This document shows, in pieces, positions 2,754-58,713 of a stretch of DNA of 64,000 bases. Under the pieces are notes generated by a model. That model saw only the letters and a program-made list of their open reading frames with translations, was not told the DNA's origin and searched no databases. The stretch's first letter is position 1, and every line of letters begins with the position of its first letter. The translations under genes were made by a program, and so were the position numbers. The stretch comes from a virus: positions 13,723 to 77,722 of IMG/VR virus record IMGVR_UViG_3300034069_001889. The stretch is one strand, 5' to 3'.

Positions 2754-4469
2754 CTACCACATGCCGATGAGTTTGTCCCCCGTCTCCTTTGCGAAGATGG
2801 TTGCGTGCGCAGCGTCGTCGGGCTCAGTTTTCTTGTGGTCGTAGCGAAGAATGCCGGTCGAGGACACTTCGGCAAAGATGTGTTCGATGTCGACCAGGTA
2901 AGTCTGGGACTGCTCCCAAGGCGGAAAGATGAACCGGCCTTTTTTGATGTCGGCAAAGAAATCCGACATGACCTCGGTCCGGTTGATCGTCACTTTGTGG
3001 GCGGTTGGATCGTAACGCATGCGTTCACGCTGCATACCGACGTATTGGTACTTGATGACCCGGTGGGCTCCGAAGGCGGCTTCGAGCTGATCGTTGGCCG
3101 CCCATCCAAAACCCCAGTCGGAGCCAATCAATTGGACGTTGAAAGCTTTGGCGAGGCGAATGATGTCGCCGATGCAGTTGGTGGGGAGTGCGTCGTCGCC
3201 AAGGTAACGGCGGTAAAAGAAGGGGTGGAATTTGCCGGGCCTAACGTAGGCACCAATGCAAACGACCGTGTAGGACGCCGTGCGGAGGCGGCCCTTCTCG
3301 TCGCGCTCGGAGCCGTCGGAGCCCGTGCCCCAGTCGACTCCCATGACGAGCTGCCAGTTGTGGGTGAGCTCGTCGGGGGCGGTACGCATGGGCCAGTCGG
3401 ACGACGTCGAGGCGATGATCTCGGTCCGAGTGACGGGCTTTGAGGCCGAGTCGTAGGAGATGCCCAAGACTTCGTTATAAAACTGACCTTTGGAATACGT
3501 GTCCATCTTCCACACGATCTCCTTCCACTTATCCCCAGATTGCATCCAAGGCACCATGATCTGATTCAAATGAAAGCCCATGGTGTCCCGGCGGTCGGAG
3601 AAAGCGACCCACAGGCCATCGGACGGATTGATGCGTTTCCCGCACTTGTTGCAGATGGGGTGCTCGCGGCCAATGCACCGCTCGTCGAGAAAGTTGAAAT
3701 GGACCGGGTCATGGCGTCTACAGCGGACCAGCCATTCGCATTGGGAGGACTCCAGCCACGTTTCTTCGATGAGGTTGTCGTTGGTTAAGGGTGTGCCGGC
3801 AAAGACCGCCGTAGGGTTGTTGGAGTGCGATGTGACCTCCATGATGACAGGAAGGTTGGCGGAGATCATGTTTTGGATCTCGTCGATCGCCAGGAGATCG
3901 GCCGAGAGTCCCCGGACGCGGTCGGCGTTGAGGAATGCGGATCGCAGAAACATCATGGACCCGTTCGTCATCCCCTTCTCGAACACTTGGCTTGAGACCT
4001 TGGTCGAGAGCAAGTACTTGCTGATGACGGGTGAGTCTTCCATCCAAGGCGTGAGCTTGCCGGCGGAGAATTGACGCGTCTGCAGGTAGGACGGGGAGAC
4101 GTAGACGGACTTGCGGTACGGGGTGACCGCTGATTCGACGATCAGATTGTTTGCGAGGAAGGTTGATTTCTCGCACTGCCGCGAGAACTTAAGCAACAGG
4201 CGCGGAAACTTGCCGTTGTAGATGGGCTGTAGATACTCACGGCCGTTAAAGTCGAATTTGGCGCCGTCGAGGTAGACGAGGTTATGAACCCAATCCGCCT
4301 TCTTCGCGACCACGTGTTGCTTGACGTAGTTTCCAAAAGGCAGCGACTTGACGCTGAAGTGGCGCTTCTTTTCGGCCTTTTCGTTGGTTTGCTCAGGAGT
4401 TTCCTGCTCGGCCTCTTCGGCGGCCGCAAGCTCGGCCTCCATGAGATCATTCGAATTTTTCTCACTCAT
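2754..4469 (-). CDS. terL: Terminase large subunit (GpA-like)
   Basis: REYLQPIY adenine-binding region, Walker A-like KFSRQCEKST, Walker B LLAIDEIQ, coupling motif AGTP, Cys/His zinc region, nuclease MGVDWG and PDDAAHA. Confidence 0.9.
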   Translation of the reverse strand: MSEKNSNDLMEAELAAAEEAEQETPEQTNEKAEKKRHFSVKSLPFGNYVKQHVVAKKADWVHNLVYLDGAKFDFNGREYLQPIYNGKFPRLLLKFSRQCEKSTFLANNLIVESAVTPYRKSVYVSPSYLQTRQFSAGKLTPWMEDSPVISKYLLSTKVSSQVFEKGMTNGSMMFLRSAFLNADRVRGLSADLLAIDEIQNMISANLPVIMEVTSHSNNPTAVFAGTPLTNDNLIEETWLESSQCEWLVRCRRHDPVHFNFLDERCIGREHPICNKCGKRINPSDGLWVAFSDRRDTMGFHLNQIMVPWMQSGDKWKEIVWKMDTYSKGQFYNEVLGISYDSASKPVTRTEIIASTSSDWPMRTAPDELTHNWQLVMGVDWGTGSDGSERDEKGRLRTASYTVVCIGAYVRPGKFHPFFYRRYLGDDALPTNCIGDIIRLAKAFNVQLIGSDWGFGWAANDQLEAAFGAHRVIKYQYVGMQRERMRYDPTAHKVTINRTEVMSDFFADIKKGRFIFPPWEQSQTYLVDIEHIFAEVSSTGILRYDHKKTEPDDAAHATIFAKETGDKLIGMW

Positions 4470-10697: not shown

Positions 10698-11801
10698 TTA
10701 GCCAGCCGTCACAGTTTCGACACCCATTGAAGGGGCGCCCGTGATGTTGTCAACCAAAGGGCTCGACACAGTAGTAAGCACCTGCCCAGAACTGCCGTTG
10801 AGCATGATCTTGCTCGCGTCGATCTTGGCGTTACCGCCCGCCTTGACCGCGACGTCACCGGTGGCGTCCACGGAAGCGTCTCCACCCGCCGTGACGCTGA
10901 CCTTTCCTCCGGCCTGCACCGTGGCGTCACCCTGGGCGTTTAACTGCACGTCGCCCGTCACCTGGCCGGACAGTTTGCCTTGGGTCTGAAACTGCACGTC
11001 ACCGGTTGCGGCATCAATCTTCATGGAAAATTTACCCGGACCAATGTCGAGGTAGGTCGACCCGTCTTTTTTGATCGACATGCGAAACGATCGCGGCTTG
11101 AAGTCTAGGTTTTCATCGACCGCGCCCTGACGGATATCCAAGATTAGGTCGCTAGCGGGAAACCCTTCAATACTGCCGCCACCGGCTTCGTCATTTACAG
11201 CGGGTACGGTGCCAACATCGACAGAAACCGCGTTGCTTGGATTGTTTGACTCCCAAGCTTTAAAAGAAAGGTTTGTCGTTTCGTCATCGTTGTCGAGGTT
11301 CCAGTAAAGGTAGCCGCCCGCGGTTTCGAGCTCGCTATTCTGGCAAACCGCACTTATTAAATTTTCCGACGGTAGCCAAAAGGTTCGACAAAGTAGAGTG
11401 GACTGGACTTCGACCGTCCCACCCGTGCGAAGGATGATCCGGTTATTGGCGGTGGTTTTGAAGACACGGTCACCAGGCAGCAATTCGACTTGATTGTCTC
11501 TTTGCGTCTCGCCATCACTCATCTGCATGGTCGACGCGCCCAGCCAATACGAGTCGGGGCCTACGAATAAAATGACGCCGTAGCTTCCTTCGCGCGGGAT
11601 TGAAACGTCTTCGTCCCCGTCAAGGTGCCACTGACTGTGTAAGATCTTGACGCCGTACAGATCCAAATCGTCGGTGTTTTGGAGGCCGAACGTTTTGGCC
11701 CGAACGGTGCGAGCACTGGAGTCGACGTGCGTAATTCGTCCAATGCAGGCGAGCCCTGTTCGGTCCAGGCCGCCCTCATACTGTGACCACTCATTTGCCA
11801 T
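10698..11801 (-). CDS. Baseplate central spike (GpV/gp5/VgrG-like)
   Basis: N-terminal OB-fold-like [14 protein letters not shown]; C-terminal 8-residue beta-helix repeats ([54 protein letters not shown]). Start placed at ATG 11801. Confidence 0.75.
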
Positions 11802-11843
11802 TGCCAAAGGCTAGCATGTGGAGAAAAATTTTTACAGATATTC

Positions 11844-12976: not shown

Positions 12977-13019
12977 CACATGACGCGACCTGCGCCTTAT
13001 TGGGCCCGTGAGGCCCCCC

Positions 13020-13041
13020 GTGCCCGCGAGGGCACATTTTT
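13020..13041 (+). terminator. Intrinsic terminator downstream of the structured RNA
   Basis: GTGCCC-GCGA-GGGCAC (GNRA loop) followed by ATTTTT; a second GC hairpin GGGCC-cgtga-GGCCC lies just upstream. Confidence 0.7.
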
Positions 13042-13127
13042 ACGTCGGTGTTTTTATTTTACCTATTCCCTTTGGCCGCGACTGGTGTATAGCCATCCCA
13101 CAAACGCGCAAGCGAAAGGAAATTCAC

Positions 13128-13535
13128 ATGCTACAAAGTACCCAGGTCCTCAAACTCAAGAATGCCGTTCGGTCGACGCTTGGTTCGATGGCACTGAACG
13201 ATTTGCAACAAGTTGGCGTGCTCGACGACGTGTTGCTGCTTTTAAAAAAGCTAGAGCCGCAGGCGGGCGTCAAATCGACGCTGACTTCGTTGGGCGTAGA
13301 CCCGAGCGACAAACAAGAACAACCTGCCGAGAGCATTGCCGCGAGCACGGCGGGGAACATCAAGACATTACGCAAAAGATCTCCTAAGCGCAGCTACTCC
13401 GAAAAAGTCCGCAAGGAATTTGCGAGACTCTTGGCGGAAGAATCAAAATCCGTCCCTTCCGCCGCCCGTAAGCTCGGCATCAATGTTGCCACGGCGTACG
13501 GCTGGAAAAGCTTGATCTCAAAAACTGCCAATTAG
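13128..13535 (+). CDS. Helix-turn-helix DNA-binding protein (~135 aa)
   Basis: C-terminal YSEKVRKEFARLL...SVPSAARKLGINVATAYGWK (HTH_Tnp_1-like); AAAGGA RBS before ATG 13128; no transposase catalytic domain. Confidence 0.7.
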   Translation: MLQSTQVLKLKNAVRSTLGSMALNDLQQVGVLDDVLLLLKKLEPQAGVKSTLTSLGVDPSDKQEQPAESIAASTAGNIKTLRKRSPKRSYSEKVRKEFARLLAEESKSVPSAARKLGINVATAYGWKSLISKTAN

Positions 13536-13780
13536 TACTGAATGATCTGGGGCGGGGGAGGTGGCGGCTCCTTCGGCCCGGAGAATGCCTTGGCGGCAAG
13601 CACGGTCCCGCCGAGTGCCATGAACGGGTGCTTCTTGATCAAGCCCGACACCATGCCCGGTGATTTTTTTGCAACGTCCGCGCCTGCGGCCGCGGCGGGC
13701 GCGCCTTTAAACACCTGACCCGCCTTAGCCGTCATGTCGCCGAAGAACCCTGCCGTCTTCTCAAATCCACTACTAAACAT
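13532..13780 (-). CDS. Small protein with MFSSGFEKTA leader, amphipathic Gly/Ala core and poly-Pro tail
   Basis: ATG overlaps the RNAP stop (TGATG); leader motif. Confidence 0.8.
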   Translation of the reverse strand: MFSSGFEKTAGFFGDMTAKAGQVFKGAPAAAAGADVAKKSPGMVSGLIKKHPFMALGGTVLAAKAFSGPKEPPPPPPQIIQY

Positions 13781-16700
13781 CAGTATGTCTCTTTCTTTTT
13801 ACCGAACGACGCCCCGTGAGCGAACGCAGGGATCGGGTGATTGTCGGCCACGTCCGACGACCAGTTCTGCGCCGCGCCCTCGGTCAACGTATTCTTAATT
13901 TTACGATACCCGAGCTGAGCCATCCAATTTTTCTTAGTAAACGGAATCTCGGTGATCGCCTTGATCATTGGCTTGTGAAGCAACGGATCTTTGAGCACGT
14001 CGATCTCATTACGGAAGCCCGCCGCCTTGAGGTAAGGGATGTCCTTGTCCTGGATCTCGTGAAGGGCCGGCAGCTTGCCCACGTTGTTCTGAAGGTGATA
14101 ACCCGCAGAATCTTCGACGTGGACCTTTTTAGCGCGCTGCTCGTTGTAGTGCTTGGCCGTCGTGTAGGGCATGACGTCCCCCGGAAGCACGTTCATGTGC
14201 TTTGGAGCGTGGAGCACCTGCGTGTTGTTCGCAACGGAGCGAACCACGGTCTCAAAGACACGGCGGTGCATGTTCACGCCCTGGCCCGCGTACGTGTTTT
14301 GAAGCTCGTCCACGATGTAGTTCTGGGCGGCGTCGAGACCTTTGTACCTCGCCAAGTTCTGGGGCTTGGTGACCCCTTCGGTCATGTTGTCGCCAACTTT
14401 GACCCGGTCGCCGACTCTCACGTTCAGTTTCAGATCCGGGTGAGTGGTGTAGCGCTTGTCACCGACCTCGATAACGTGTCCGCCGGCGGGCGCTTTCGTA
14501 ATCTTGGACACCTTGCCCTCGTTGGTGGCCATCGTGGCTTCCCGTGCCAGGTGGGCCGGCTGATTGACGAGCTGGTTGACGCGGTTAAATCCGGACACCG
14601 TTGCCGCGCCGGCCACGCCGCCCGTGTGGAAGGTTCGCATCGTGAACTGGGTGACGGGTTCAGACATTGCCTGCCCCATCTTGGCCCCGATGTTGTCCCC
14701 GAGCGAAGGTTTAGCGCCGTGTTCGTCGATACCAAAACAACGGGCGCACGTGCCTTTGGGAGCAATGCATTCGAGCGGGGTGCGCACGTCAACGGTCTTA
14801 GCCCCCTTCTTACGCAGGCTCGACAGCACCTGTGGAGTCACCAGCGTGTTGCGAGCGTAGCCGTGCTGATCCCGCGACAGGTACCGATCATAGATATCTT
14901 GAGTTCGGTCGAGAGGGAGCTTCAGACCTTTTTTCGTTCCGCAATCATCAACGGTGATGATGTTGTCGACCGTTGCTGCCAAGATGTCTTTATTGAGCGC
15001 GCCGGGTTTCGACGTTTGGAGCGTCCGGTCCATCATGCCCTTGCGAACACCGTAAGACGCGATGAAATAGTCGGAGGTAGTCAGACCCTCGGCGTAGCTG
15101 TTCTTCACGGGGACGGGCACCTTGCGGTTTTTGGAATCCACGAGGATCCCGGGTGCCGTCACCATTTGCCGCAGCTGCAAATCGTTACCCTTGGCGCCGG
15201 ATTCCACCATGCGGTAAAAACTCGACCCAGAGTCCTTCAATTGCTTCTTGCCTGAAGTCTCGTAAGCCTGCGTGGCGGCCTTTTCGTAAATTTCGGAGAT
15301 CTTGGCGTCAAGTCCCACTCCGGCTTTTTCTTTCTTACGAAGGGCCGCGACCGCGCGATCGGCCATTGCGAACAAACGGTCCCGCTCTCTATTATCGACC
15401 TGCAAATCTTTGATGCTGGCCGAAAACCCGGTTTGGTACGAGTGCTGGTCGCCCAGGTTCTTGAGCTCCTGGACGAGGGTCGCAAATTTGTTCGGCTCTT
15501 TTTTAGCGAGGTCTTTGAAGAACTCACGCGCGCCGGCCTTGTTGAGCTGCTTGGTCACGTGAAAGCCGCTCGGCAAGAGCTTGTTGATCCGCGCGCGTCC
15601 CTCGGGGTTTTGAGAAAGAAGGTAGAGCCCGATGGCCGCTTCCTGCGAAGGAACGAGCATGAGTTCGCCGGTGCCGGGGTTCCAGAGGTTGTTCGACGGC
15701 AGCATCTTGTGCGATTCGGTCAGCGCTTCCTGGGAGATTGGCACGTGAATGTTGACCGCATCCCCGTCGATGTCGGCGTTGAAGCCTTTGAAGACGAGCG
15801 GAGGCACCTTGATCGCTAAACCGTCCGTGAGTTGTGGCTTGAAGGCCATGATCGAGAATTTGTGGAGCGACGGCGCCCGGTTCATCATGACCGTGCGTTT
15901 TTTCATCACGGCCTCAAGCTGCTGCCGGGCCCGGACGGTTTTCTTCTCCACCTCTTGGCGCGCGTCTACGGGGGCGTAGCCGGCTTTAACAAACTCGCTG
16001 ACGATGAATGGCTTGAAGATGCTCCACGCCATTTTTTCCGGGATGCCGATTTCATCCACGTGAAGATCCGGTCCGTTGGTGATCACGCCGCGGCCCACGA
16101 GATCTTGTTTCTTCGTGATTAATTTGTTGAGGAAGAAACCCTGCTTGGGCTGATTGTTCGAGATTTGCTGCAAGAAGCCTTCGGCCGGCTGGTCCTTACC
16201 CCGGGGGTAAAGAGCCTCCAGTCCCGAGATGACGCGCGTTTGTTTGTAAGTCTCCTGGCGGAGCTGGGCCTTTTCGCTATCGTCGAGGTATTTCATGACC
16301 GGGTACTTGTGCGCCTCGGCAAGGATACCAAGACCTTGGTAAAGGTAGTTGGACGGCGATACCGACCGCCCGATTCCAGGCAACTCCTCGATCGGGCGAA
16401 ACTTTGGCGGCACGACGGGCACGGTCGAGCGCGTGTAGGCGTCGGTGGGCTTGAGGTTAAGCTCTTTCAGTGCCGCGAGGTAGCGCACCTTACGGTTGAG
16501 CGAATCGATCTCCGTAGCTTTCGTGTCGGGCTTCGCGGCCCTCGACTTAAGCAAAGCGCTCGCATTTTTCATTTCCTGCTCGACGTCGATGCCTTTAAGC
16601 AAATGCGAAATGGCTTCCCCACCCGTGACGTACCCTGGCGACGTTTTATCGGTGATCTTACCGTCCTTGCCTAGAAACCGCTTTCCCGCGATCAAGTCGT

Positions 16701-19700
16701 TGTATTGAGGTTTGCTCAAGCCCGTGAGGTTGCGGATGGCGCCTTCGAAAATCGGGTTCGGGAGCCGTTCGGGAAGGTCAATGTGCGTGTACCCGCCGCC
16801 ATCGAGGCCACCCGTCTTGGCGCGGTCAAAGAACCCGCCTTTAATTTCTTGCATGTCTTTGCCCCGAACAAACTGCCAGTTATCGACGGCACCGTTTGAG
16901 AGTTTCAAGGTCTCTTTGTCGGTGAGGGGCGAGATTCCAAAATTCGAACCATTCTTCGTGACGTTGATGCCGGCGCCTTTGAGAAGGCCCAAAAACTTGT
17001 CGAACGCGAAGGTGGTCTTCGGGGGCGGCAGAGGCTTTCCGGTCGAAAGGTGATCCCAGAGCTCATCGTTGCGCTCGGATTTCATGTGCGCATCGTGCAG
17101 GTTCTTTTTGGCACCGTGGGAGAGCATCGAGTAAAAAGCGAGCGCGTCGACGCTCTTCGTTCCGGACTCACCACGACGGAGTGGCTGCATGTTGCGATCG
17201 TAACCAGAACCGGGCGTCCGCGCCGAGAAGCCGGACTTCCCCGTCTTGGCCAGACGGATGATGTGCGGAATCCCGACGCTCACTTCGCCAAGCTTGTTCC
17301 CTTTCGGGTCGTAGAGTGTCTCGGTGTCGGTCAGGCCCGCTTTTTTCAGATCAGCGATAATCTTGGTGTTGGTCGGCTCAGAGTCGAAATTTTTTACAAC
17401 GTAAGGTTTTCCCGTCTTATCCGCAATCTTCCCGGCGGCGGATTCATAGATCTGCCCAAGATTGATTCGGCTGATGACGCCGTGGGGGTTCAAGAACATA
17501 TCGGGCACCTGTCCGTCGGCGGTGCGGGGCGCTTCGCTATCGGGTATGACCTTCGAAATTACGCCCTTGTTCCCGTGTACGCCCGAAAGCTTATCAGACT
17601 CGCGCGCGGGCTCAATGGTCTTGACGTAGACGTGGTGGCCGTCCGAGTTTTTATTCACGTCCGTCACGATACCGGGATATTCGCCCGTGTACTTCACGGC
17701 CGCGTCAGCCCAAGGCACGGCCAGCGCCTTGTTGAGTTTTTGGAGCGTCTTGTTGGCAAGCGAGCCCGTGTTGTTGGCAAGGCCCGCGATCAAAATGTCG
17801 CCGGGCTTCACGCGGGCACCTTTTTTGATGACGCCGTTTTCGCCCAGCTGATTGCGCGCGTCCAAGGGAATCTTGCGGCCGTGGTAGGACTCCCACTTAC
17901 TGCCGTTAACAATAAACCGTCCGGCTTCGGGCTGAAAAGAGTGTTTGATCACTTGCTCGGCCGAAAGTTTCTTCGACGCCGACTCCGTGATGACGATCCC
18001 GTCTTCAAAGGTGTGGCCCGGGATTGGGAGGTAGGCGACCTTCAAATTTGTGCCCAGCGCCAAGGATCCGCCCTTGGTGAAGTTTGAATCCGCAATCAAC
18101 TGGCCGGCCTTGACCCGGTCGCCCACTTTCACGGTGGGCGTGTGGTGGATATACGTTTTTTGGTTGAGCGGGAAGTTGTTGTAGAGCGGAATCTTCTCGG
18201 AATCGATCTGGATGTAATCGGGACCGATGGCCTTGACCGTGCCGTTCTTACTCGCCGCTACGCTGAACTGCTTTCCGATCGCCTCCTGGAAGGTCTGCCC
18301 TTTGACGAGCTCCGTTTGCACGTGAGGCGCTTCGCGGTTGATCAGCGGCAGCGCCTGGCCGAGCTGTTTTGCCGCCATGGCCGTACGCGTGCCCTGGTTG
18401 TTCTTGAGGAACGGCACGAGATTGGAGGAGTGCGAGAAGAGGCCGATCGGGGTGGCCAGTACGCCGTCGACCTTGCCGCTGGGGACGACCATCACCTTGC
18501 CGCGATGCTGAACTTTGACACCGCTCGGGTTTTTGAACTTACCGTCGACGATCTCGTCAGGAAACGCCACTGCGCGGCCAAACATTTGGAGCGGAGTCAA
18601 ACGCTCGTGCTTTTTGGTTTTGGTGTTGTAAACCGACGCGTTGATTTCGCGCCCATTTTTCTGCACGCCCGCGGCCATGTGCAAAACCAAGCCCGTGGTG
18701 TCAGCCTCTGGCGTGTGCACGGGATCGACGAACCCAATGTGGGACGGGTGAACCTCGCGCAAATTGACCGGTACGGCGTGTTCTTGCGTAATACCACCCG
18801 TGCCCATGACCGTGAGCTTTGAAGCCCCGGCCAGCATGTTGATAGGATTGTATTGCTCGGGCGGGTTGACGCGGTCATCACCCTTAAAGAAAGCTTCGAC
18901 GGGCGACGTGAGCTTTCGAAAGTCGATCATCTTTTTGAGGTTTGCCCGACGTCCTAAATGCTTACCGATCAAATTTTTGAGCTGCTGCGTTTCTTTCTTG
19001 CTCGTAAGCTTGTCGTGCAGCATGTCTTCAACGGACCGCACTTCTTTAAACACTAGATTCTCGACGTCGTCAGGGTCGGCTTTGTGGTTGTGAACCTGGA
19101 GGATCTTTTTAGCTGTGTCCAGTACCAAGCCTTTGGAAAGCTCCGAGTGACTTGTCCCGAGGGTGATGCCCGTAATGCCCGGATCGACCTTCATCTTTGG
19201 CGCCGTTTGCTTGACCGCGTCCATTGCCGTCTGGCGGTTGTCCGTCGTCACGTTCGCAATCGACTTCGCAAGCTTGTGGTAGCCCGCGTCACGGTCATAC
19301 TTGCGGTTGGCCAGGAAAACATCTTCACCAATGGTTTTGATGATTTCTTGATCGCTGGCCCCGAGGGAGTGAAGTAGGGGCAGAATCCCGACCTTGGTTT
19401 TGTCGCCCATGACGACGTCGTAGCGATTTGTCTTGGAATCAAAATTGATGTCGAAGTTTTTCTGGCGCTCGCCCTGGGTTACGACCATGCCTTTGTAGGT
19501 ATCGCCCTTATCCGAGGCCGTGACGTACGTCCCGGGCTTGCGGATCATTTGGTTTGCAACCTGGTATTCGTTACCTGAGACGATATATGAGTGCCTAGGG
19601 GTCAATCTCGGGACCGTGGCAATCCGGATCTTTTCGATACGGTCGACGACCTTACCGTTTTCATCTTTGAGGACGAGCGAGGCCATAACGGGCACGCCCC

Positions 19701-19890
19701 AAGTGCCCCCGGCGAGCTTCACCTTTTTTTGGTCGGCGTAGTCATCTACCGCGGTGGTCTTGTCATCGAGCCAGATTTTAGGCGCGTCAATTCGGTGCCC
19801 GTTTTTCTCGACGGGAAAGAGCCTCTTGTACGCATCGACCACGGTAGAAGAGAGCTTCTGGAATTCGTCGGCACCTGAGAATGTACGCAT
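13780..19890 (-). CDS. rpoBC: Fused beta-beta' multi-subunit DNA-directed RNA polymerase (2036 aa)
   Basis: beta motifs DKLSGVHGNKGV and LNPHGVISRINLGQ; beta' motifs NRAPSLHKFSIMAF, NADIDGD, SGAKG, GLTTSDYF..YGVRKG, DDCGT, CIAPKGTCARC and GQAMSEPVTQFTMRTFHTGG; junction near 16950 with no stop. Confidence 0.95.
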   Translation of the reverse strand: MRTFSGADEFQKLSSTVVDAYKRLFPVEKNGHRIDAPKIWLDDKTTAVDDYADQKKVKLAGGTWGVPVMASLVLKDENGKVVDRIEKIRIATVPRLTPRHSYIVSGNEYQVANQMIRKPGTYVTASDKGDTYKGMVVTQGERQKNFDINFDSKTNRYDVVMGDKTKVGILPLLHSLGASDQEIIKTIGEDVFLANRKYDRDAGYHKLAKSIANVTTDNRQTAMDAVKQTAPKMKVDPGITGITLGTSHSELSKGLVLDTAKKILQVHNHKADPDDVENLVFKEVRSVEDMLHDKLTSKKETQQLKNLIGKHLGRRANLKKMIDFRKLTSPVEAFFKGDDRVNPPEQYNPINMLAGASKLTVMGTGGITQEHAVPVNLREVHPSHIGFVDPVHTPEADTTGLVLHMAAGVQKNGREINASVYNTKTKKHERLTPLQMFGRAVAFPDEIVDGKFKNPSGVKVQHRGKVMVVPSGKVDGVLATPIGLFSHSSNLVPFLKNNQGTRTAMAAKQLGQALPLINREAPHVQTELVKGQTFQEAIGKQFSVAASKNGTVKAIGPDYIQIDSEKIPLYNNFPLNQKTYIHHTPTVKVGDRVKAGQLIADSNFTKGGSLALGTNLKVAYLPIPGHTFEDGIVITESASKKLSAEQVIKHSFQPEAGRFIVNGSKWESYHGRKIPLDARNQLGENGVIKKGARVKPGDILIAGLANNTGSLANKTLQKLNKALAVPWADAAVKYTGEYPGIVTDVNKNSDGHHVYVKTIEPARESDKLSGVHGNKGVISKVIPDSEAPRTADGQVPDMFLNPHGVISRINLGQIYESAAGKIADKTGKPYVVKNFDSEPTNTKIIADLKKAGLTDTETLYDPKGNKLGEVSVGIPHIIRLAKTGKSGFSARTPGSGYDRNMQPLRRGESGTKSVDALAFYSMLSHGAKKNLHDAHMKSERNDELWDHLSTGKPLPPPKTTFAFDKFLGLLKGAGINVTKNGSNFGISPLTDKETLKLSNGAVDNWQFVRGKDMQEIKGGFFDRAKTGGLDGGGYTHIDLPERLPNPIFEGAIRNLTGLSKPQYNDLIAGKRFLGKDGKITDKTSPGYVTGGEAISHLLKGIDVEQEMKNASALLKSRAAKPDTKATEIDSLNRKVRYLAALKELNLKPTDAYTRSTVPVVPPKFRPIEELPGIGRSVSPSNYLYQGLGILAEAHKYPVMKYLDDSEKAQLRQETYKQTRVISGLEALYPRGKDQPAEGFLQQISNNQPKQGFFLNKLITKKQDLVGRGVITNGPDLHVDEIGIPEKMAWSIFKPFIVSEFVKAGYAPVDARQEVEKKTVRARQQLEAVMKKRTVMMNRAPSLHKFSIMAFKPQLTDGLAIKVPPLVFKGFNADIDGDAVNIHVPISQEALTESHKMLPSNNLWNPGTGELMLVPSQEAAIGLYLLSQNPEGRARINKLLPSGFHVTKQLNKAGAREFFKDLAKKEPNKFATLVQELKNLGDQHSYQTGFSASIKDLQVDNRERDRLFAMADRAVAALRKKEKAGVGLDAKISEIYEKAATQAYETSGKKQLKDSGSSFYRMVESGAKGNDLQLRQMVTAPGILVDSKNRKVPVPVKNSYAEGLTTSDYFIASYGVRKGMMDRTLQTSKPGALNKDILAATVDNIITVDDCGTKKGLKLPLDRTQDIYDRYLSRDQHGYARNTLVTPQVLSSLRKKGAKTVDVRTPLECIAPKGTCARCFGIDEHGAKPSLGDNIGAKMGQAMSEPVTQFTMRTFHTGGVAGAATVSGFNRVNQLVNQPAHLAREATMATNEGKVSKITKAPAGGHVIEVGDKRYTTHPDLKLNVRVGDRVKVGDNMTEGVTKPQNLARYKGLDAAQNYIVDELQNTYAGQGVNMHRRVFETVVRSVANNTQVLHAPKHMNVLPGDVMPYTTAKHYNEQRAKKVHVEDSAGYHLQNNVGKLPALHEIQDKDIPYLKAAGFRNEIDVLKDPLLHKPMIKAITEIPFTKKNWMAQLGYRKIKNTLTEGAAQNWSSDVADNHPIPAFAHGASFGKKKETY

Positions 19891-19962
19891 AGACCGCCCA
19901 TTTTACACTGTCGGAGCCCGGATCGGCAGTCCCAACCGCACGGCAAATAATAACACAGTGCA

Positions 19963-19972
19963 GATATAAGTA
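19963..19972 (+). promoter_or_regulatory. Candidate promoter motif GATATAAGTT
   Basis: Lies in the AT-rich divergent gap before the 205-aa gene; same motif class as 11844. Confidence 0.45.
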
Positions 19973-20027
19973 TTATATGAGGTCCGGAAACTGATTTCTG
20001 GATTTCTAACACCCGCAGGAGGGGAAC

Positions 20028-20645
20028 ATGCAATCATCAGACACATCACCATTCGAAAATCCCGAGGGCTCGAAGAGTCCGCCTGAGAATCCGTTCGCCA
20101 ACGTTTCGGCGTTCAACAGCGAGTCCAATCCGTTCGAGAGCGAAAAGAGCTTTGGCGCTCCGCCACCGCCTCAACTCAGCAAAGTCGAGCGATTCATGCA
20201 GCAGCACGAGGAACAACCTTCGTACGTCCCGACGCTTGTCGAGACGGCGACGGGTTACGAGATTCAGTTTCTGCTGCAGTCCAATGCGCAGATATACGGT
20301 ATGCCGTCAGTCTCCCAGCAAATTCCGCAAATCGTGGGGTTTGGCCAAAAGGTCGGCACGGCCGCGGTGGGCGTGGCTTCTCACGCGGGCCGCATCGTGG
20401 GCTACAGCTTCTTGACGGCGTTTCAGCTCGCGGTCACAAAGTTCTTCATGGAGTGGCTCGCCGGCATGACGAGGGCGACCATGCAGAGTGCTGCGGACCG
20501 TGGTCTACCCGTGCAGCGTATCGACACCGAGGGGATCTCGTATCACCCAAATGGTCAGGCGCCGCAAGGGTCGCAGCAAAATCAAAACAGTCAAAGCCGC
20601 AACTCCGCAGATTCCCCGTTCGGGGCGCCACCGCGGGTTTGGTGA
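20028..20645 (+). CDS. Hypothetical protein (205 aa) with disordered xPF-motif termini and a hydrophobic central helix
   Basis: AGGAGGGG RBS; followed by a terminator; SPF/NPF/NPF/SPF motifs. Confidence 0.8.
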   Translation: MQSSDTSPFENPEGSKSPPENPFANVSAFNSESNPFESEKSFGAPPPPQLSKVERFMQQHEEQPSYVPTLVETATGYEIQFLLQSNAQIYGMPSVSQQIPQIVGFGQKVGTAAVGVASHAGRIVGYSFLTAFQLAVTKFFMEWLAGMTRATMQSAADRGLPVQRIDTEGISYHPNGQAPQGSQQNQNSQSRNSADSPFGAPPRVW

Positions 20646-21222: not shown

Positions 21223-21604
21223 TGTTGAATCCCTGGGCGAAGGCCCCGTCGTAAACCGCCTCTTCGGCGGCTTTTGGGTGAGGCATCGCCGCCATTGGCT
21301 CACGCGCAACGATGTTGCGGAGCATGTAGCGCATCTCCGCCTCATCCCGAACGTTTTCGTACTTTTGGAGGGAGGCCGCGCTCAGGCCCGTAATAGCCCC
21401 TCCGGCAAGACCGGCCACGGCCGCGCCCATCAGCGGGTTTCGCCCCCGAAGTGCTTGTAAAGCGCCTCCAAAGGGCGCGGCGATCAAAGTTCCGCGTGCG
21501 CTGCCTTTGAGCGCTGCAACGAGCGGCGAGCGCTTCAAACGCGCACTTTCTTCCGCAATCAGTACGGGAAGGGGCTTGTCCGTCTTGTAAGACTGCTCGG
21601 ACAT
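21203..21604 (-). CDS. Glycine-zipper membrane-type protein (133 aa)
   Basis: GAAVAGLAGGAITGL hydrophobic GxxxG repeats; ATG overlaps the portal stop. Confidence 0.7.
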   Translation of the reverse strand: MSEQSYKTDKPLPVLIAEESARLKRSPLVAALKGSARGTLIAAPFGGALQALRGRNPLMGAAVAGLAGGAITGLSAASLQKYENVRDEAEMRYMLRNIVAREPMAAMPHPKAAEEAVYDGAFAQGFNSVYRPY

Positions 21605-23559
21605 TAGACGCCTCCCTGACGACGCGGCGGCTTTTGCTCAGGCATCGGCGTCATGTTGATCGTCACGTTCTTCGGGGCCGTCTTGGCGGCTTTCGCTTGC
21701 GCCTCGGCTTTCACTTGAGCGACCTGCACTTTGGTCTGTTCTTTTTCAGCCACCTGCTGCTGTTGCTGTTGTTGCTGCTGCGCCTGCTGATCGTCGGCCG
21801 CGGCCTGTTCCTGCTGTTGCTGCTGCGCTTGCACGTCTTGACTAGTTGGAACAGCGGGGTGCCCGACCGCTAGGTTTTGGAGTGCGCGTTGCAGAAGATC
21901 TGAGAAGCCCTGGTCGAGAGCCTTGACGCGTTCGAGATAAGCCTCTTGCTCTTCTGGTGACGCTTGAGCGAGTCGTTCCGCAAGCGCCGTGATCGTGTCT
22001 GCCGTGACCTTGTCGACCGCCACTTGATTCTGAGCTTGGCCATTCGGGTCGTTTTGCTGGCGAACCGCGTAGCGCTGTTGAATTTCTTGCGCGCGCGCCT
22101 GACCTTCGGCCTGACGAGCCATTTCCGCCTGCTGAATCTTGCCGTAAAACTGCGACTCTTCTTCCAGTTTCTGACGGACGGTGCCGGGGTCGCGACCAAA
22201 TTCGCGCTGAATGTCTTCCCACGGGAGACGGTTGCTCGACGCCATACTGATCATGAGCTGCATCTTTTGCATGTCGTCGGCCATTTTGAAATCCGAGAAA
22301 CGGGCCGATTTTGGCGCCGCCTGGCCAAGATAAAGGCGCGCGCGTTCAATCAACCAGATATTCATCTGGAGAAGTTGAGTGCGCTGGTGGAGGAAGTCGT
22401 TCTCAAGCGTTCTGAGCGAAACGCTCGAACCGGACCACTGCATCGTTCCGCCGCTCACGAATTCCTGGGGAATTCCGCAGGCGCCGATGATCCACTTCGC
22501 GAGAAAGTCCATCTCGGGCGTGAGCATGAGCGCTTTGCCATCGCCACCAATACGTTGGTAGCCAACGGGGAAGGGCAGGATGGCCTTGTAGTTGGTATCG
22601 CGTCGCTTGTTCGCGAGCTCGCGCTCCATCTGCTTCTTCCAGCTCGAAAGATCCGTGTTCGTGTAGGGATCCATTTTGCCGTTGGCCGCGGGAAAGATGA
22701 TGTCGAAGGGCACGATGTGCTCTTGCATCACGGCTTCTTGAGCGCGGCGAAGCGTGTAGTAGTGAAACAGATCTTTGAGCGCCGTCGCGATGCGCGGCAA
22801 GCCCCAACCCATGTCTTTCCCGGCCAGCGTCGGATTTTTTAAATGGAAAAGGTTGTCGTGGGCCAATTTGATTTTGCGCTTGAGCTTGATTGCCTCGATG
22901 TAGATCTGGGGCGTGTCCTCGATGATGTCGGGATCGCCCTGCATGATCTGTTTCTTCAAACGATCCGGGATGCTGTACATGTACGTGTGACGAGCCGTCG
23001 TCTCGTTGTACTTGATATCGATGTACTCCGGATTGATTCGAATCAGCCGCATGCTTTCGACCGATTTGAACGGAATGTCGATCATCTTCATGGCGCCGTG
23101 GTTGCCGCAGCTCCGGCACTTACCCTTCACGACTAGGTTGTCGATCTTTTTCATCACCTGCTTCCAGGGCGAACGGTGCTTACACGCCGAACACTCCAAA
23201 AGACGCGCGAACGGGTAATGCAACGTCACGAACGCGTTCCCGTAGCTCGTGAGATCGAGGTTACACTCCATATTGAAGGTTTTGATCTGGAGCGTGTTGT
23301 TGAGGAGCGTGCTCCAAAACTTCACGAGTTGGGGATCGTGATCCTCTAAAACCAAATCGGTCACGGGGTAGCGGGCAATTTTACCGAGCGCCGGTCCGAG
23401 GAAGGAGTTGTTCGTGCAATAGAAGTAGACCCACTTGAACAATTCCTTGATCGTCGGCGGGACGTACTGCTGCGAAACGTCAAAGAAGGGCGAGGGGTAG
23501 CTGGTGCGGAGCCCCTGATCTTTGCCCATTCTCAAACTAGCGTCGACTTGGCCGTTCAT
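21604..23559 (-). CDS. Putative portal protein (651 aa) with zinc-finger insertion and Gln-rich tail
   Basis: Size and helical/beta pattern are consistent with a portal (YPSPFFD..., ARYPVTDL, HIVPFDIIFP, PVGYQRIGGD); CSAC/CRSC insertion. The portal call is an inference. Confidence 0.55.
   Translation of the reverse strand: MNGQVDASLRMGKDQGLRTSYPSPFFDVSQQYVPPTIKELFKWVYFYCTNNSFLGPALGKIARYPVTDLVLEDHDPQLVKFWSTLLNNTLQIKTFNMECNLDLTSYGNAFVTLHYPFARLLECSACKHRSPWKQVMKKIDNLVVKGKCRSCGNHGAMKMIDIPFKSVESMRLIRINPEYIDIKYNETTARHTYMYSIPDRLKKQIMQGDPDIIEDTPQIYIEAIKLKRKIKLAHDNLFHLKNPTLAGKDMGWGLPRIATALKDLFHYYTLRRAQEAVMQEHIVPFDIIFPAANGKMDPYTNTDLSSWKKQMERELANKRRDTNYKAILPFPVGYQRIGGDGKALMLTPEMDFLAKWIIGACGIPQEFVSGGTMQWSGSSVSLRTLENDFLHQRTQLLQMNIWLIERARLYLGQAAPKSARFSDFKMADDMQKMQLMISMASSNRLPWEDIQREFGRDPGTVRQKLEEESQFYGKIQQAEMARQAEGQARAQEIQQRYAVRQQNDPNGQAQNQVAVDKVTADTITALAERLAQASPEEQEAYLERVKALDQGFSDLLQRALQNLAVGHPAVPTSQDVQAQQQQQEQAAADDQQAQQQQQQQQQVAEKEQTKVQVAQVKAEAQAKAAKTAPKNVTINMTPMPEQKPPRRQGGV
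21755..21836 (-). repeat. Low-complexity CAG/CAA (poly-Gln) tracts in the portal C-terminus
   Basis: Encodes QAQQQQQEQAAADDQQAQQQQQQQQQ. Confidence 0.85.
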
Positions 23560-36477: not shown

Positions 36478-37323
36478 TTAGGGCAGAGATAAAACTTCAA
36501 TTTCAAGCATGAGGTCGGCAACCACGCCGCCCATGTCGGCACTTGGAACGGCCCAACCGATTCGAATCACGGCCGACGAGAGTGCCTGCGGAGGACTGGT
36601 GGTCAAATAGCCTCCCGGACCCTCATTCAAGAAAACGGCCTGACCCGCAAGAGCGCCCAGACCCGAGCATGCCGTCTTGACTAACCCTTCGGTTTGAACC
36701 GGACCAAAATCACCGGCGGTGATGTCGGAGAGCGTAACACCCGCAACTTTTGTGCGCGAGGAATCAGATGCGTTCCCGAGAATCAGCAGATCTTGATCGT
36801 TCCAAATTGCAACTCTAAGTTTCGGCAAAGACTCCGAGGCGTCACTTTGATATTGGTACGACTGAGCTTCGCCACCACCGCCACTCGACATGCTTTGAAC
36901 TTGAGAGACGGCAATTTTAAGATCGGTTGCCGCGCCCGCGGTCGCATTGAACTCGGCAAAACCAACCTGAAGTTTCTGGGCGTTCGGGTTTGTCGGCGGG
37001 CTGAGAACGAGCGAGCCCGGGACAAGTCCCAGATAAATCGGATCTCCCGGACGGGCGTTCAGGCCCGCGAGAGCGCCTTCGACCGCGCCGGCTTGAACGA
37101 AGAGACCCTGGGCTCCGCTTTGGACCGTGTCGTACGCAACGCCAACGATCCGGAGGGGATTGGTGTCCGTCGGGTCGGCCAGCACAATTTGACCATCCGC
37201 ATTCCACGCGGTGACGCGGAATTGAGGAATAGGGCCCGGATTGCCGTTCACGCCAAGGTACGAGCGAGCTTCCAAAATGGCTCGCTGCACGGATCCCGGA
37301 GACGATGATTTATAAACGCTCAC
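36478..37323 (-). CDS. Protein with two tandem capsid-cement/DUF2190-like modules (281 aa)
   Basis: Repeat ..V..WN.....LA.......VGV.......G..G.VQ..G.V......G...G..I.L....G.L..SPP....V.VG.A occurs twice. Confidence 0.65.
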   Translation of the reverse strand: MSVYKSSSPGSVQRAILEARSYLGVNGNPGPIPQFRVTAWNADGQIVLADPTDTNPLRIVGVAYDTVQSGAQGLFVQAGAVEGALAGLNARPGDPIYLGLVPGSLVLSPPTNPNAQKLQVGFAEFNATAGAATDLKIAVSQVQSMSSGGGGEAQSYQYQSDASESLPKLRVAIWNDQDLLILGNASDSSRTKVAGVTLSDITAGDFGPVQTEGLVKTACSGLGALAGQAVFLNEGPGGYLTTSPPQALSSAVIRIGWAVPSADMGGVVADLMLEIEVLSLP

Positions 37324-39407: not shown

Positions 39408-39416
39408 ATTCTAGCA
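39408..39416 (-). promoter_or_regulatory. Extended -10 promoter candidate TGCTAGAAT
   Basis: About 21 nt upstream of the GTG at 39386. Confidence 0.55.
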
Positions 39417-40506: not shown

Positions 40507-40515
40507 ATTATATCA
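40507..40515 (-). promoter_or_regulatory. Perfect extended -10 promoter TGATATAAT
   Basis: Intergenic; exact TGnTATAAT consensus. Confidence 0.65.
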
Positions 40516-48329: not shown

Positions 48330-48338
48330 ATTCTACCA
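48330..48338 (-). promoter_or_regulatory. Extended -10 promoter candidate TGGTAGAAT
   Basis: Intergenic, 50 nt upstream of 48280. Confidence 0.55.
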
Positions 48339-56208: not shown

Positions 56209-58713
56209 TCAGATGTCGTTGACCGTGATCTGACCGGGGTAAAAGTGAAGGATTCGCTTCGTCGTGTAATTTTCGGTATCGCGGTCCAAGACCACGTCTG
56301 GGAACTGCAGGATGTCTTGATTTTGCAAAATGGTCGTCGTCCCGTCCGGGTTGACCACCGTCGCGCTCATGTCGAATGGAATTTGAACGGACTCAACACC
56401 CTGGTTCTCAAGCAATTGAGACACGTCCGAGGCAATCACTCCGTCGAGACCGCTTTTCTGATTCACGAAATCTTGGACGAGTTTGGACAGCACGTCGTTG
56501 GTCGGCGTGGTCAAATTTTTAGGATCGCGCCGGACACTCAAATTCATGTCGACAAAAGCCGGCACGAAGTTCTTCGGCAGCACGTCCGCCCCCGTCACGC
56601 GCTCGCTATCGTCTCGGGAGAGATTGTGAATGTCGACGATCTCGGGCACCCAGCGGTAGGTCACCCGGTAGCTGCGTGATAAAGCGTCTTCTCCGAAAAG
56701 AATGACCGCGTTGTCGAACACGGAGAATCGGTCGCGGGGCGCGAGAATTTTAAATTCATATTCCCCGCCCGCACCAATGCCGTACCCGCCCGAACCAAAC
56801 CCACCAAATCCATACCCTCGCGGAGGCAAGAGGGGATCCGCGATTGTTTCACCGGATTCGGGATCAATCTCCTGGACCGACACGATGTCAATCAGCGGAG
56901 TATTGGCCAAAGTCATGTCGGTCCGGCCGGGACGAATGCCGCGGTTAAGCCCATCCGCCAAGAGCGTTTGCGCGCCCACGTCGATTGAAATGGGGTTGTA
57001 CTGATAATCAATCACCACGACTTGGTTGCTGACTACCGAGTATTGAACCTGATCAAACGCCTGCGTCGGTGTGAAGCCTTGCAGAGACAAGCGCTGCGTG
57101 CTGATCACGTCGAGCACGTTGAACGACTGCGGCAGATCGCCGATCACGGTCCCCTCGGTCTCGCCGGCAATTGCGGTGACGGTGACTGTATCGCCGACGC
57201 GAACCTTACAAGGTGCGTAAGCATCGAGGAACTTGTCGGCCACGCTCGATTCGAAATAATAAGCGTTGCCGTCCAAAACAACCCGGCCGTCCGTCGCGCC
57301 GTTGATCATGGTCTGGCCGCTCAAGATGGTCGGCAGCTCTCGTCCCTGAAATGGCTTTTGGTAGATAAGCCCACCGTCATAGTCGACGGCGTAATCCACG
57401 GTCTCTTGATAAACCTCCGCCGCAACACCCGTGACGGTCTGCGGGAAGCTGGACGTCCCAAAAAGCGCCGTACCACCTTGAGCAAAGGCTCCGGTGTCGA
57501 GGAGAGTGATCTGCGACTGCCCGCCGACGATCTGCGACGTGATCTGGATTCGGTTACCCGACGCTGGCTTTGCCACCGTGAAGCCCACGGCCGCGTTGAT
57601 CGAGTTGATGATCTCAAATCGCTGGGTTGCGAATGGCGTGGCGCCCGAGATCTTGATTCGAGTCGCGGGCAAGCTATCAATTTGGATGTTGATGAATTCT
57701 TTTCCGACCAAATTGAGGCCCGTGCTCGGCGGGATTTGTAAGGACAAGAGAGCCGCCGAAGTTTCGACCACGTCCTCGCGAACGCGCACCGACCCCGTCA
57801 CCAGCTGCGGCGTACCCAGGTCGGAGGGAATGATCGCGTCGTCGACCGCCTTCGCCATTTCGATGTGCGCCTGGCGGTCGATGTTGCGAGTCAAATCAAA
57901 ATCCAGGCCCGCGAAATCTTGAGACGCCGTCGTGAGCGAAGGCGTTTTGAGGTAAACGTCCGTTCGTCCGCCCACGTGAACATTGTACTCAATGTCCCGC
58001 TGCATCTCGGGGTCGCCCATGCCGATCGAAGAAATCTGGCGAATGAACGGGAATTTCTCGCGCAGAATGGCGTTGATGCCCTTGGTCGTCTCTAGGTCGC
58101 GAACGCCAATTGAGTTTTGCGCGCGGGACAAGAGCTGCGTATTTGTTTCTCGCGGAAGTCCGCCGACGGCGGCACTGAGATTGGTGACCCGGATCGAATC
58201 CGTGTCGTTCACAAACCCAGTCAGCGCGCCAGCATCAAGGTTGTAATCATCCCCCTCGCTTTGAGCTCGGGCGGCGACGTCGACGTAGTAAAACGTACCC
58301 TCGGTCTGAAGCGCCATCTCCTGGGCGGTGATGAGGATGTCTTCGGAGTTGAAGTACGAGAGCGAGCCGGCCGTGAACTCTGCGGAAAAAGCCGGATATT
58401 CTTTATCAAGCGGATCCGCGTAGTAAATACGGACGGTCGTGGTCGCGAAACTACCCTCGTCACGCGTTACAAAAAGATTGGCCACCAGATCGTCAACGTC
58501 AGATTCCGTATACGAATCCGGGTCCGGCTGCGCCAAGATCCGGCGAATACTTTGCGAGACCAGGATTTGGTCGAGCGTGTTACTGAGCGGCTGGAGCATG
58601 AGCTCCTGCGGCTTGATGAACATTTCGTGAAACGCCGTGCCCGGCCTGGTGTCAAAGTCCGGATCGGCCTCTTGGATGCGGGCACGAATAAATTCAACTA
58701 CTGGCAATTCCAT
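56209..58713 (-). CDS. Baseplate J-like wedge protein (834 aa)
   Basis: DTRPGTAFHEMFIKP...A.AQSEGDDYNL...VTNLSAAVGGLPRETNTQLLSRAQ, a BppJ/gp6-type pattern. Confidence 0.8.
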   Translation of the reverse strand: MELPVVEFIRARIQEADPDFDTRPGTAFHEMFIKPQELMLQPLSNTLDQILVSQSIRRILAQPDPDSYTESDVDDLVANLFVTRDEGSFATTTVRIYYADPLDKEYPAFSAEFTAGSLSYFNSEDILITAQEMALQTEGTFYYVDVAARAQSEGDDYNLDAGALTGFVNDTDSIRVTNLSAAVGGLPRETNTQLLSRAQNSIGVRDLETTKGINAILREKFPFIRQISSIGMGDPEMQRDIEYNVHVGGRTDVYLKTPSLTTASQDFAGLDFDLTRNIDRQAHIEMAKAVDDAIIPSDLGTPQLVTGSVRVREDVVETSAALLSLQIPPSTGLNLVGKEFINIQIDSLPATRIKISGATPFATQRFEIINSINAAVGFTVAKPASGNRIQITSQIVGGQSQITLLDTGAFAQGGTALFGTSSFPQTVTGVAAEVYQETVDYAVDYDGGLIYQKPFQGRELPTILSGQTMINGATDGRVVLDGNAYYFESSVADKFLDAYAPCKVRVGDTVTVTAIAGETEGTVIGDLPQSFNVLDVISTQRLSLQGFTPTQAFDQVQYSVVSNQVVVIDYQYNPISIDVGAQTLLADGLNRGIRPGRTDMTLANTPLIDIVSVQEIDPESGETIADPLLPPRGYGFGGFGSGGYGIGAGGEYEFKILAPRDRFSVFDNAVILFGEDALSRSYRVTYRWVPEIVDIHNLSRDDSERVTGADVLPKNFVPAFVDMNLSVRRDPKNLTTPTNDVLSKLVQDFVNQKSGLDGVIASDVSQLLENQGVESVQIPFDMSATVVNPDGTTTILQNQDILQFPDVVLDRDTENYTTKRILHFYPGQITVNDI

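Follow-up and report, generated by a model that had tools for sequence, protein, structure and literature searches.

The window analysed here, a stretch of 64,000 nucleotides (nt) spanning positions 13723–77722 of the linear IMG/VR virus record IMGVR_UViG_3300034069_001889 (115,893 bp), encodes an RNA polymerase (RNAP) whose beta and beta' subunits form one polypeptide. By sequence, this protein is an intact single-chain RNAP core of bacterial type. Paired with a sigma factor encoded in the same window, the core probably constitutes a self-sufficient holoenzyme that is delivered in the virion. A first-pass annotation of the window had proposed a single-chain beta-beta' polymerase of a phage, which is borne out by the phage genes of the contig (terminase, portal, capsid and baseplate genes) and by conservation of the fusion in relatives.

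A single-chain RNA polymerase core of bacterial type

The polymerase gene and its main elements are located as follows.

13780–19890, minus strand: fused beta-beta' RNAP gene (P0001), 2036 amino acids (aa), from the list of open reading frames (ORFs), translation, Pfam and PDB search
16954–19890, minus strand: beta module, aa 1–979, corresponding to Salmonella beta 51–1339 (family hidden Markov model (HMM) against RpoB)
13783–16938, minus strand: beta' module, aa 985–2036, corresponding to Salmonella beta' 28–1297 (family HMM against RpoC, Foldseek)
16942–16959, minus strand: junction turn TKNGSN, aa 978–983, from the last beta strand to the first beta' strand (alignment, AlphaFold2 (AF2))
17560–17577, minus strand: beta active-site motif HGNKGV, aa 772–777 (alignment)
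15760–15780, minus strand: catalytic loop NADIDGD, aa 1371–1377 (alignment)
14731–14949, minus strand: second beta' zinc site, C1650, C1708, C1715 and C1718 (alignment)
14617–15069, minus strand: bridge helix, aa 1608–1635, and N-terminal arm of the trigger loop, aa 1743–1758, both conserved, without SI3 (alignment)

The ORF begins with ATG and contains no internal stops. Pfam beta domains (Rpb2_3 and Rpb2_6 at aa 345–903, with PF00562 (Rpb2_6) at E = 2e-45 over aa 572–903) are followed by the beta' domains Rpb1_2, Rpb1_4 and Rpb1_5 (aa 1260–1897), all above the curated cut-offs. This agrees with the first-pass description of one 2036-aa ORF with beta and then beta' motifs, to which the minus strand, absent from that description, can be added. 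The top PDB matches of the polymerase were bacterial beta' chains (E = 1e-103). Eighteen full-length homologues, with 43–66% identity to the window protein, were profiled and aligned to Salmonella RpoB and RpoC. The profile alignment gave these correspondences.

Protein ~19–196: Salmonella beta 51–233
Protein ~251–747: Salmonella beta 420–933
Protein ~751–831: Salmonella beta 1049–1129
Protein ~835–979: Salmonella beta 1187–1339
Protein ~992–1029: Salmonella beta' 28–65 (weak)
Protein ~1057–1420: Salmonella beta' 150–515
Protein ~1419–1758: Salmonella beta' 570–948
Protein ~1756–1916: Salmonella beta' 1134–1297

The fused protein is compact relative to bacterial beta plus beta', as had been remarked at first pass, with 2036 aa against 2749 aa for the two Salmonella subunits summed, because lineage-specific insertions and the N-terminal zinc ribbon of beta' are absent. 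The missing segments are beta 234–419, 934–1048 and 1130–1186, together with beta' 66–149 (zinc ribbon), most of ~516–569, and 949–1133 (SI3). We take the absent segments to be those named SI1, SI2, beta-i11, the N-terminal zinc ribbon and SI3 in E. coli. The C-terminal 120 residues gave no HMM alignment and carry the beta' region-H-like motifs TLTEGAAQ and HPIPAF.HG.

Within the catalytic loop, D1373, D1375 and D1377 are invariant in the family, as are G773-N774-K775-G776 of the beta motif across the aligned homologues, and the RAPSLH motif is conserved in the alignment to Salmonella RpoB and RpoC. The whole protein has only four cysteines, all of which belong to the second beta' zinc site (C814/888/895/898 in bacterial beta'). 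The N-terminal zinc ribbon (C70/72/85/88) is missing, with beta' 66–149 replaced by ~27 cysteine-free residues. Elements on which sigma docks, the clamp coiled-coil and the flap tip helix, are retained in the alignment, and the clamp and the beta' half of the barrel were also recovered by AF2 and Foldseek. Several rifampicin-pocket positions are changed (Q513N, D516E, H526G, R529K and S531T in E. coli numbering), and because of the pocket substitutions equivalent to H526G, Q513N and S531T the polymerase is predicted to be insensitive to rifampicin.

An inactive relic, or a purely structural protein of the particle, might be suspected from the loss of the zinc ribbon and from a catalytic loop that reads NADIDGD where NADFDGD is expected. 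However, the F position varies freely in intact relatives (F/V/I/Y/H, with I common to the window protein and its closest relatives), while none of the 18 full-length homologues departs from the window protein in the catalytic aspartates, GNKG, bridge helix, trigger loop or Zn2 cysteines. Inteins of the relatives lie at active-site motifs, as is typical of essential enzymes. A relic or structural role is thus considered highly improbable.

The window polymerase itself is intein-free. In many relatives the fused polymerase is interrupted by inteins of 350–530 aa (Pfam LAGLIDADG_3 and Intein_splicing), with at most two per protein, at four hot spots located at aa ~393–396 (HTPE), ~617, ~1371–1380 (NADxDGD) and ~1753 (FHTGG, trigger loop). 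Intein-bearing relatives are L021, L036, L052, L053, L059–L066, L069, L071, L073, L077, L079, L084 and L085, and the homologues P0008, P0017, P0019, P0022, P0026, P0029, P0041 and P0100.

The beta to beta' junction

At the junction the end of beta (approximately E. coli residue 1339) runs into beta' at approximately residue 28. No insertions or deletions are present at this point across the 18 homologues, and the flanks LKGAGI.V.K.G and L.P.TD are conserved. A 596-residue AF2 model of aa 830–1425, built from a 34-sequence alignment, had a mean predicted local distance difference test score (pLDDT) of 84.6 and a predicted template modelling score of 0.78. In this model the junction blocks, with pLDDT 87–96, form two adjacent strands connected by a two-residue tight turn. 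Foldseek matched bacterial beta' chains over ~490 positions of the model (TM 0.64), with the remainder corresponding to the C-terminal segment of beta. Given the gap-free conserved junction and the confidently predicted strands, the fusion is modelled as a structured join of natural neighbours rather than a floppy linker. The first-pass annotation had described a short TKNGSN linker near 16950. Its position was correct (aa 978–983), but the hexapeptide is the variable turn of a conserved junction and not a flexible linker.

Distribution and phylogeny of the fused polymerases

More than 100 full-length homologues (~2000–2040 aa, 42–67% identity, contigs of up to 186 kb) were recovered in a search of 5.8 billion proteins, and IMG/VR contained 76 loci (32–60% identity, contigs of up to 210 kb). 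In ~70 of these 76 a single open frame spans the whole enzyme, the exceptions being one 1865-aa frame or frames that run off contig ends. An assembly artefact was therefore rejected, because the relatives keep the single frame. The family is internally deep (32–67% identity), and the fused enzymes make up a large clade of uncultured phages of ~160–210 kb. Literature searches turned up no paper that describes phage beta-beta' fusions of this kind, and the lineage that carries them is essentially undescribed, with cultured cousins.

A concatenated beta plus beta' tree (61 rows, 1950 columns, LG+G4, quick search) placed 53 fused proteins on one side of a branch with a Shimodaira–Hasegawa-like approximate likelihood ratio (SH-aLRT) support of 86. 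Their sister group was formed by Salmonella phage Arash and Vibrio phage D69 (SH-aLRT 81), with the two-gene enzymes of Yersinia phage GN1 and Cobetia phage Carin-5 next out. The four bacterial references (Salmonella, Acinetobacter, Enterococcus and Staphylococcus) were set apart with SH-aLRT 100. Natural rpoBC fusions of Helicobacter and Wolbachia, in which the C-terminus of beta is joined to the N-terminus of beta', are host polymerases of full size, still built with alpha and omega, and were left out of the tree.

Recent capture of a bacterial rpoB-rpoC fusion would account for an architecture that is bacterial rather than archaeal and for bacterial beta' chains being the best PDB matches. 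However, identity to bacterial subunits is only ~24–30%, and the deep family sits on a long, fully supported branch relative to the four bacteria. Moreover, 185,579 bacterial species genomes contained no chromosomal or prophage copy, matches other than the single contig described below being distant and rpoB-like. Though the Helicobacter and Wolbachia fusions lie outside the tree, sequence comparison leaves a recent bacterial capture largely refuted and barely credible as an explanation. The phylogeny with cellular enzymes that the first-pass annotation had suggested sets the clade far from the four bacteria.

The sole close copy in the species genomes (L092; RGER01000115.1, 4619 bp) was binned in a metagenome-assembled genome of Actinomycetota and has 55% identity over aa 1123–2036. 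This is probably a mis-binned phage contig, and would be at most a weak hint to the host.

Relationship to other phage polymerases

Arash (OQ632216) has the same join of beta to the N-terminal part of beta' in gp206 (1525 aa, Rpb2 and Rpb1 domains), accompanied by gp216. A cut in beta' after aa ~1427–1443 gives Arash and the Vibrio phages two chains, whereas the window enzyme, at ~30% identity, is one chain. Because gp206 already holds beta and the N-terminal half of beta', sequence comparison places the beta-beta' join as ancestral, older than the split between the fused clade and the Arash group. The break in beta' looks secondary, a case of gene splitting by insertion of mobile elements, because it coincides with inserted small genes or a homing endonuclease. 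Between the two parts of beta', D69 has two small ORFs, and Arash has nine small genes spread over ~4.8 kb. In D148 and D181 a homing endonuclease annotation falls somewhere within the matched region.

Homology between the window phage and Arash extends to the capsid (E = 1e-34), portal (E = 2e-70) and terminase (E = 4e-64), and further to baseplate J, a gp8-like gene, sigma, helicases and an RNA ligase. Arash and Vibrio phages D69, D148 and D181 have in common with the window phage the order portal, small ORF, polymerase, and a sigma gene among the baseplate genes. The polymerase gene follows the portal directly in Arash, but in the window phage it comes after small ORFs and an orphan gene on the opposite strand. 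Homologues of the second Arash sigma, gp196, and of the SNF2 helicase gp217, which lies beside the C-terminal part of beta' in Arash, were absent from the window record. Public records label the polymerase only 'beta subunit' or hypothetical, as the deposited cousin records do for its parts, and the Arash paper calls gp206 simply the 'beta subunit' (PMC10585845).

The mReC phages, likewise tailed and uncultured, have a bacterial-like beta and beta' that fall outside the cellular enzymes in phylogeny (PMC7481178). The first-pass annotation held that this group includes fused forms. This was not supported, in that the paper applies 'fused' to crAssphage alone and the mReC rows covered name two separate proteins per enzyme, often with two sets per contig, a beta of 920–1563 aa and a beta' of 902–1303 aa (mostly ~900–1050), with columns seemingly transposed in one row of Supplementary Data 2 (PMC7481178). 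According to the same paper, mReC phages have a Gp23-type major capsid protein (PF07068) and a Terminase_6-type large terminase subunit (PF03237). In contrast, the window phage has a fused gene, a 308-aa capsid protein like the 307-aa gp226 of Arash, and a GpA_ATPase large terminase subunit (PF05876). Membership of mReC was rejected on these three differences. Several mReC contigs, as tabulated in PMC7481178, list a set a (beta ~1365 aa, beta' ~1005 aa) and a set b (beta ~1010 aa, beta' ~905 aa), so that a single genome would encode two polymerases, a situation known from phiKZ-like phages.

Enzymes of the phiKZ/AR9 type are also phage relatives of cellular RNAP without alpha and omega, one set of which is packaged in the virion (PMC7598289, PMC7824862). 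They are highly divergent, consist of four to five chains and have no sigma, whereas the window enzyme is a single chain, far nearer to the bacterial enzymes (PDB matches at E = 1e-103), with a sigma-70-family partner. A place among the split, multi-subunit phiKZ-like enzymes was rejected given the single chain and the sigma-family gene. The crAss-like gp66, YonO and P23-45 gp96 resemble the window protein in carrying both double-psi barrels on one chain, and the crAss and P23-45 enzymes are virion-delivered. However, these are minimal and extremely divergent, without Pfam Rpb1/Rpb2 matches and without sigma, whereas the window protein keeps a near-entire core.

Compact bacterial-type enzymes (beta ~1090 aa, beta' ~925 aa) are also found in Yersinia phage vB_Yru_GN1, with YerA41 matching similarly, and in Carin-5, but as separate genes on a very long branch (1.68). 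In Carin-5 (L099, 1439–8264) a sigma gene lies directly upstream of beta and beta'. Because sigma adjoins beta and beta' in this two-gene outgroup, possession of a phage sigma seems to extend more widely among the bacterial-type polymerases of phages other than the phiKZ group.

A phage sigma factor, and absence of alpha and omega genes

The presumed initiation partner of the fused polymerase is encoded elsewhere in the window.

61062–61997, minus strand: sigma-70-family factor, 311 aa (Pfam, homology to Arash gp10, AF2)

This ORF matches Pfam Sigma70_r3 with 31.3 bits against a cut-off of 25.3 and is homologous to the Arash virion protein gp10 (E = 2e-23). It lies between the gp8-like gene and baseplate J, the same location as in Arash. 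Partner searches took in 12 records, the window's own and 11 large relatives. Completeness is 90% or higher for ten of these relatives, and terminal repeats are present in two. Each of the 12 records encodes exactly one ORF that matches Sigma70 region 3. Searches of the record with Pfam sigma regions 2 and 4 gave no match, so that the gene was detected through Arash gp10 and region 3 only. Regions 2 and 4 are weak by sequence, but in an alignment of 13 sigma homologues a region 2-like block, region 3 and a region 4-like helix-turn-helix (HTH) block occur in order, with region 3 matching in 13/13. The AF2 model shows three confident helical domains and a disordered, low-confidence 3.2-like linker. 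Its best PDB matches are all of the sigma-70 family (SigA, SigS, SigB and sigma28) and cover 235–320 columns, nearly the full length.

The first-pass annotation reported no alpha or omega gene in the window, and HMM searches agree. Pfam models for alpha (PF01000, PF01193) and omega (PF01192) found nothing at E ≤ 1 in the 12 records, which extends the absence to the rest of the 115.9-kb record and to the 11 large relatives. The same searches were positive in all 14 control genomes.

Genomic context and delivery in the virion

The polymerase and sigma genes sit in the same minus-strand block of virion genes, other members of which are listed here.

2754–4469, minus strand: terminase
10698–11807, minus strand: baseplate hub-like gene
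21604–23559, minus strand: portal gene, co-oriented with the polymerase gene and 1.7 kb upstream of it (tblastn to Arash gp204, E = 2e-70)
36478–37323, minus strand: cement-like protein
56209–58713, minus strand: baseplate J

At least 35 of the 76 relatives have a portal homologue no more than 3 kb upstream of their polymerase gene. In mass spectrometry of Arash particles, gp206, gp216, the sigma gp10 and the SNF2 helicase were found, with gp206 giving the top spectral count (PMC10585845). Because Arash particles hold the homologous enzyme and sigma, and because of the synteny with Arash, the window enzyme is probably delivered in the virion.

Candidate promoters

The promoter-like elements in the window, and the orphan gene that one of them precedes, are located as follows.

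19942–19970, plus strand: GGCAAATAA-N14-TATAAG, facing away from the polymerase gene and 58 nt ahead of the orphan gene
20028–20645, plus strand: orphan gene, 205 aa, between the portal operon and the polymerase gene, no relatives found
19972–19977, minus strand: TATAAT hexamer, 87 nt before the polymerase start codon
37523–37531 (plus strand), 39408–39416 (minus strand), 40507–40515 (minus strand) and 48330–48338 (minus strand): extended -10-like TGNTAKAAT elements

The first of these lies immediately upstream of the polymerase gene, within a gap of 137 bp, and points away from it. In the complete 175-kb genome of a relative (G001), GGCAAAAAT-N14-TATAAG occurs in nine copies at up to two mismatches, against ~1.4 in shuffles, nearly all of them intergenic and directed at genes. 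The window's own record has three matches against 0.2 expected. Two of the three are convincing, the second being 27 nt before the first gene of a plus-strand helicase block (record position 83975, outside the window). Among 72 relatives, 9 have the element, at up to two mismatches, in the 250 bp upstream of their polymerase gene where 0.37 would be expected, and these include subclades at only 43–44% identity. The divergent genes that follow it share no homology with each other. GGCAAAAAT-N14-TATAAG is thus a candidate promoter that the phage polymerase might read. No long repeated motif was found in the incomplete own record, in which no 8-mer recurred in as many as five upstream regions and neither a 14-mer nor a 16-mer family emerged. 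The heptamer CTGTAAA is enriched, with 5 of 9 copies upstream of genes, though marginally after correction for multiple testing.

The TATAAT hexamer is a possible -10 element of the polymerase gene. The four TGNTAKAAT elements, against 1.2 expected by shuffling, are all intergenic, 27–55 nt before a start codon and oriented with the structural gene downstream.

These sigma-70-like sequences bear on an alternative in which the polymerase is not a virion component but is made in the cell from promoters read by the host and serves the middle or late phage genes, in the manner of T7 RNAP or of phiKZ's non-virion enzyme. The TATAAT upstream of the polymerase gene and the TGNTAKAAT elements before structural genes would fit such a course, and the Arash authors note that proteins abundant during infection may contaminate particles (PMC10585845). 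However, the polymerase lies inside the virion module, 1.7 kb downstream of the portal and with the portal similarly near in many relatives. Sigma lies among the baseplate genes in both the window phage and Arash, and the Arash enzyme had the highest spectral count of all particle proteins (PMC10585845). Synthesis and use confined to the infected cell is accordingly judged rather unlikely, though a serious competitor to virion delivery.

Assembly and proposed mode of action

Bacterial RNAP is thought to need the alpha dimer as an assembly platform. The absence of alpha genes, read together with the fused chain, suggests, as an inference already drawn at first pass, that the window enzyme may assemble without alpha. 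In the favoured reading the covalent join of beta and beta' would replace the scaffold role of the alpha dimer, and so the enzyme and the phage sigma would form a self-sufficient holoenzyme. Expression of the enzyme would be late, together with the virion genes. It would then be packaged, as Arash packages its own, and would enter the cell along with the DNA to transcribe phage genes independently of the host polymerase, GGCAAAAAT-N14-TATAAG promoters being its candidate targets. A narrower version is put forward tentatively and judged less likely than not. This is a complete sigma-dependent machine of two polypeptides, lacking alpha, omega and the zinc ribbon, that is packed in the head, injected and reads GGCAAAAAT-N14-TATAAG as a clade-specific element, so that early transcription would be host-independent and insensitive to rifampicin.

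Alternatively, the fused chain might recruit the alpha dimer of the host, and perhaps omega, to form a hybrid core in which the fusion serves only to ensure a 1:1 stoichiometry of beta and beta'. The lack of phage alpha and omega fits borrowing as well as dispensing, the conserved C-terminal beta' region H is kept, and natural bacterial rpoBC fusions, the Helicobacter polymerase among them, still use alpha, a fact that also counts against a self-sufficient holoenzyme. A particle-delivered enzyme of this composition would, however, need host alpha to be packaged with it. No host alpha is among the Arash particle proteins in the text passages and portions of Table 2 covered, with no specific search for host proteins (PMC10585845). 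The varied environments, and presumably hosts, of the relatives would also demand a very conserved interface with alpha. Recruitment of host subunits is regarded as a lesser possibility, about as doubtful as a non-virion enzyme.

Several further points weigh against the self-sufficient, virion-delivered holoenzyme. The polymerase family is known from sequences and models alone, and the window's own record is only 74% complete by CheckV. The tree is a quick search under a single-matrix model with only four bacterial references. The absence of alpha and omega rests on HMM searches, which a divergent analogue might have escaped, and the host's alpha and omega might be used. Packaging has been shown for Arash only, at ~31% identity and by mass spectrometry only, and the Arash authors themselves allow for carry-over of abundant proteins (PMC10585845). 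A single sigma per genome leaves temporal control unexplained. Just two copies of the promoter element in the own record are convincing, and host polymerase could read the element because its -10 half resembles ordinary sigma-70 promoters.

Were the proposed holoenzyme correct, it would be the simplest known sigma-dependent polymerase of cellular type, and its two proteins with a candidate promoter would provide a tractable system for assembly and initiation. It would also represent a new virion-delivered transcription machinery, distinct from the solutions of N4, crAss, P23-45 and phiKZ. The cultured cousins, Arash and Vibrio phage D69, make these ideas testable.

Other features of the locus

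When flanking ORFs were compared by blastp across the 76 loci, the portal alone was conserved and no conserved small subunit was found beside the polymerase gene. PHROG and Pfam annotation of the neighbouring genes was mostly empty. The orphan gene at 20028–20645 had no Pfam or PHROG match and no usable Atlas match, and shows no similarity to its positional counterpart in G001. A 175-aa ORF on the opposite strand (13008–13535, plus strand), immediately beyond the polymerase operon on its downstream side, matches a transposase-type HTH (PF01527, 29.8 bits). One further small ORF adjoins the end of the polymerase gene.

13532–13780, minus strand: 82-aa ORF with N-terminus MFSSGFEKTA, ending in a run of prolines

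Its ATG overlaps the polymerase stop codon (TGATG), starting at the last base of that codon, and this arrangement suggests that the polymerase and the 82-aa ORF are translationally coupled.

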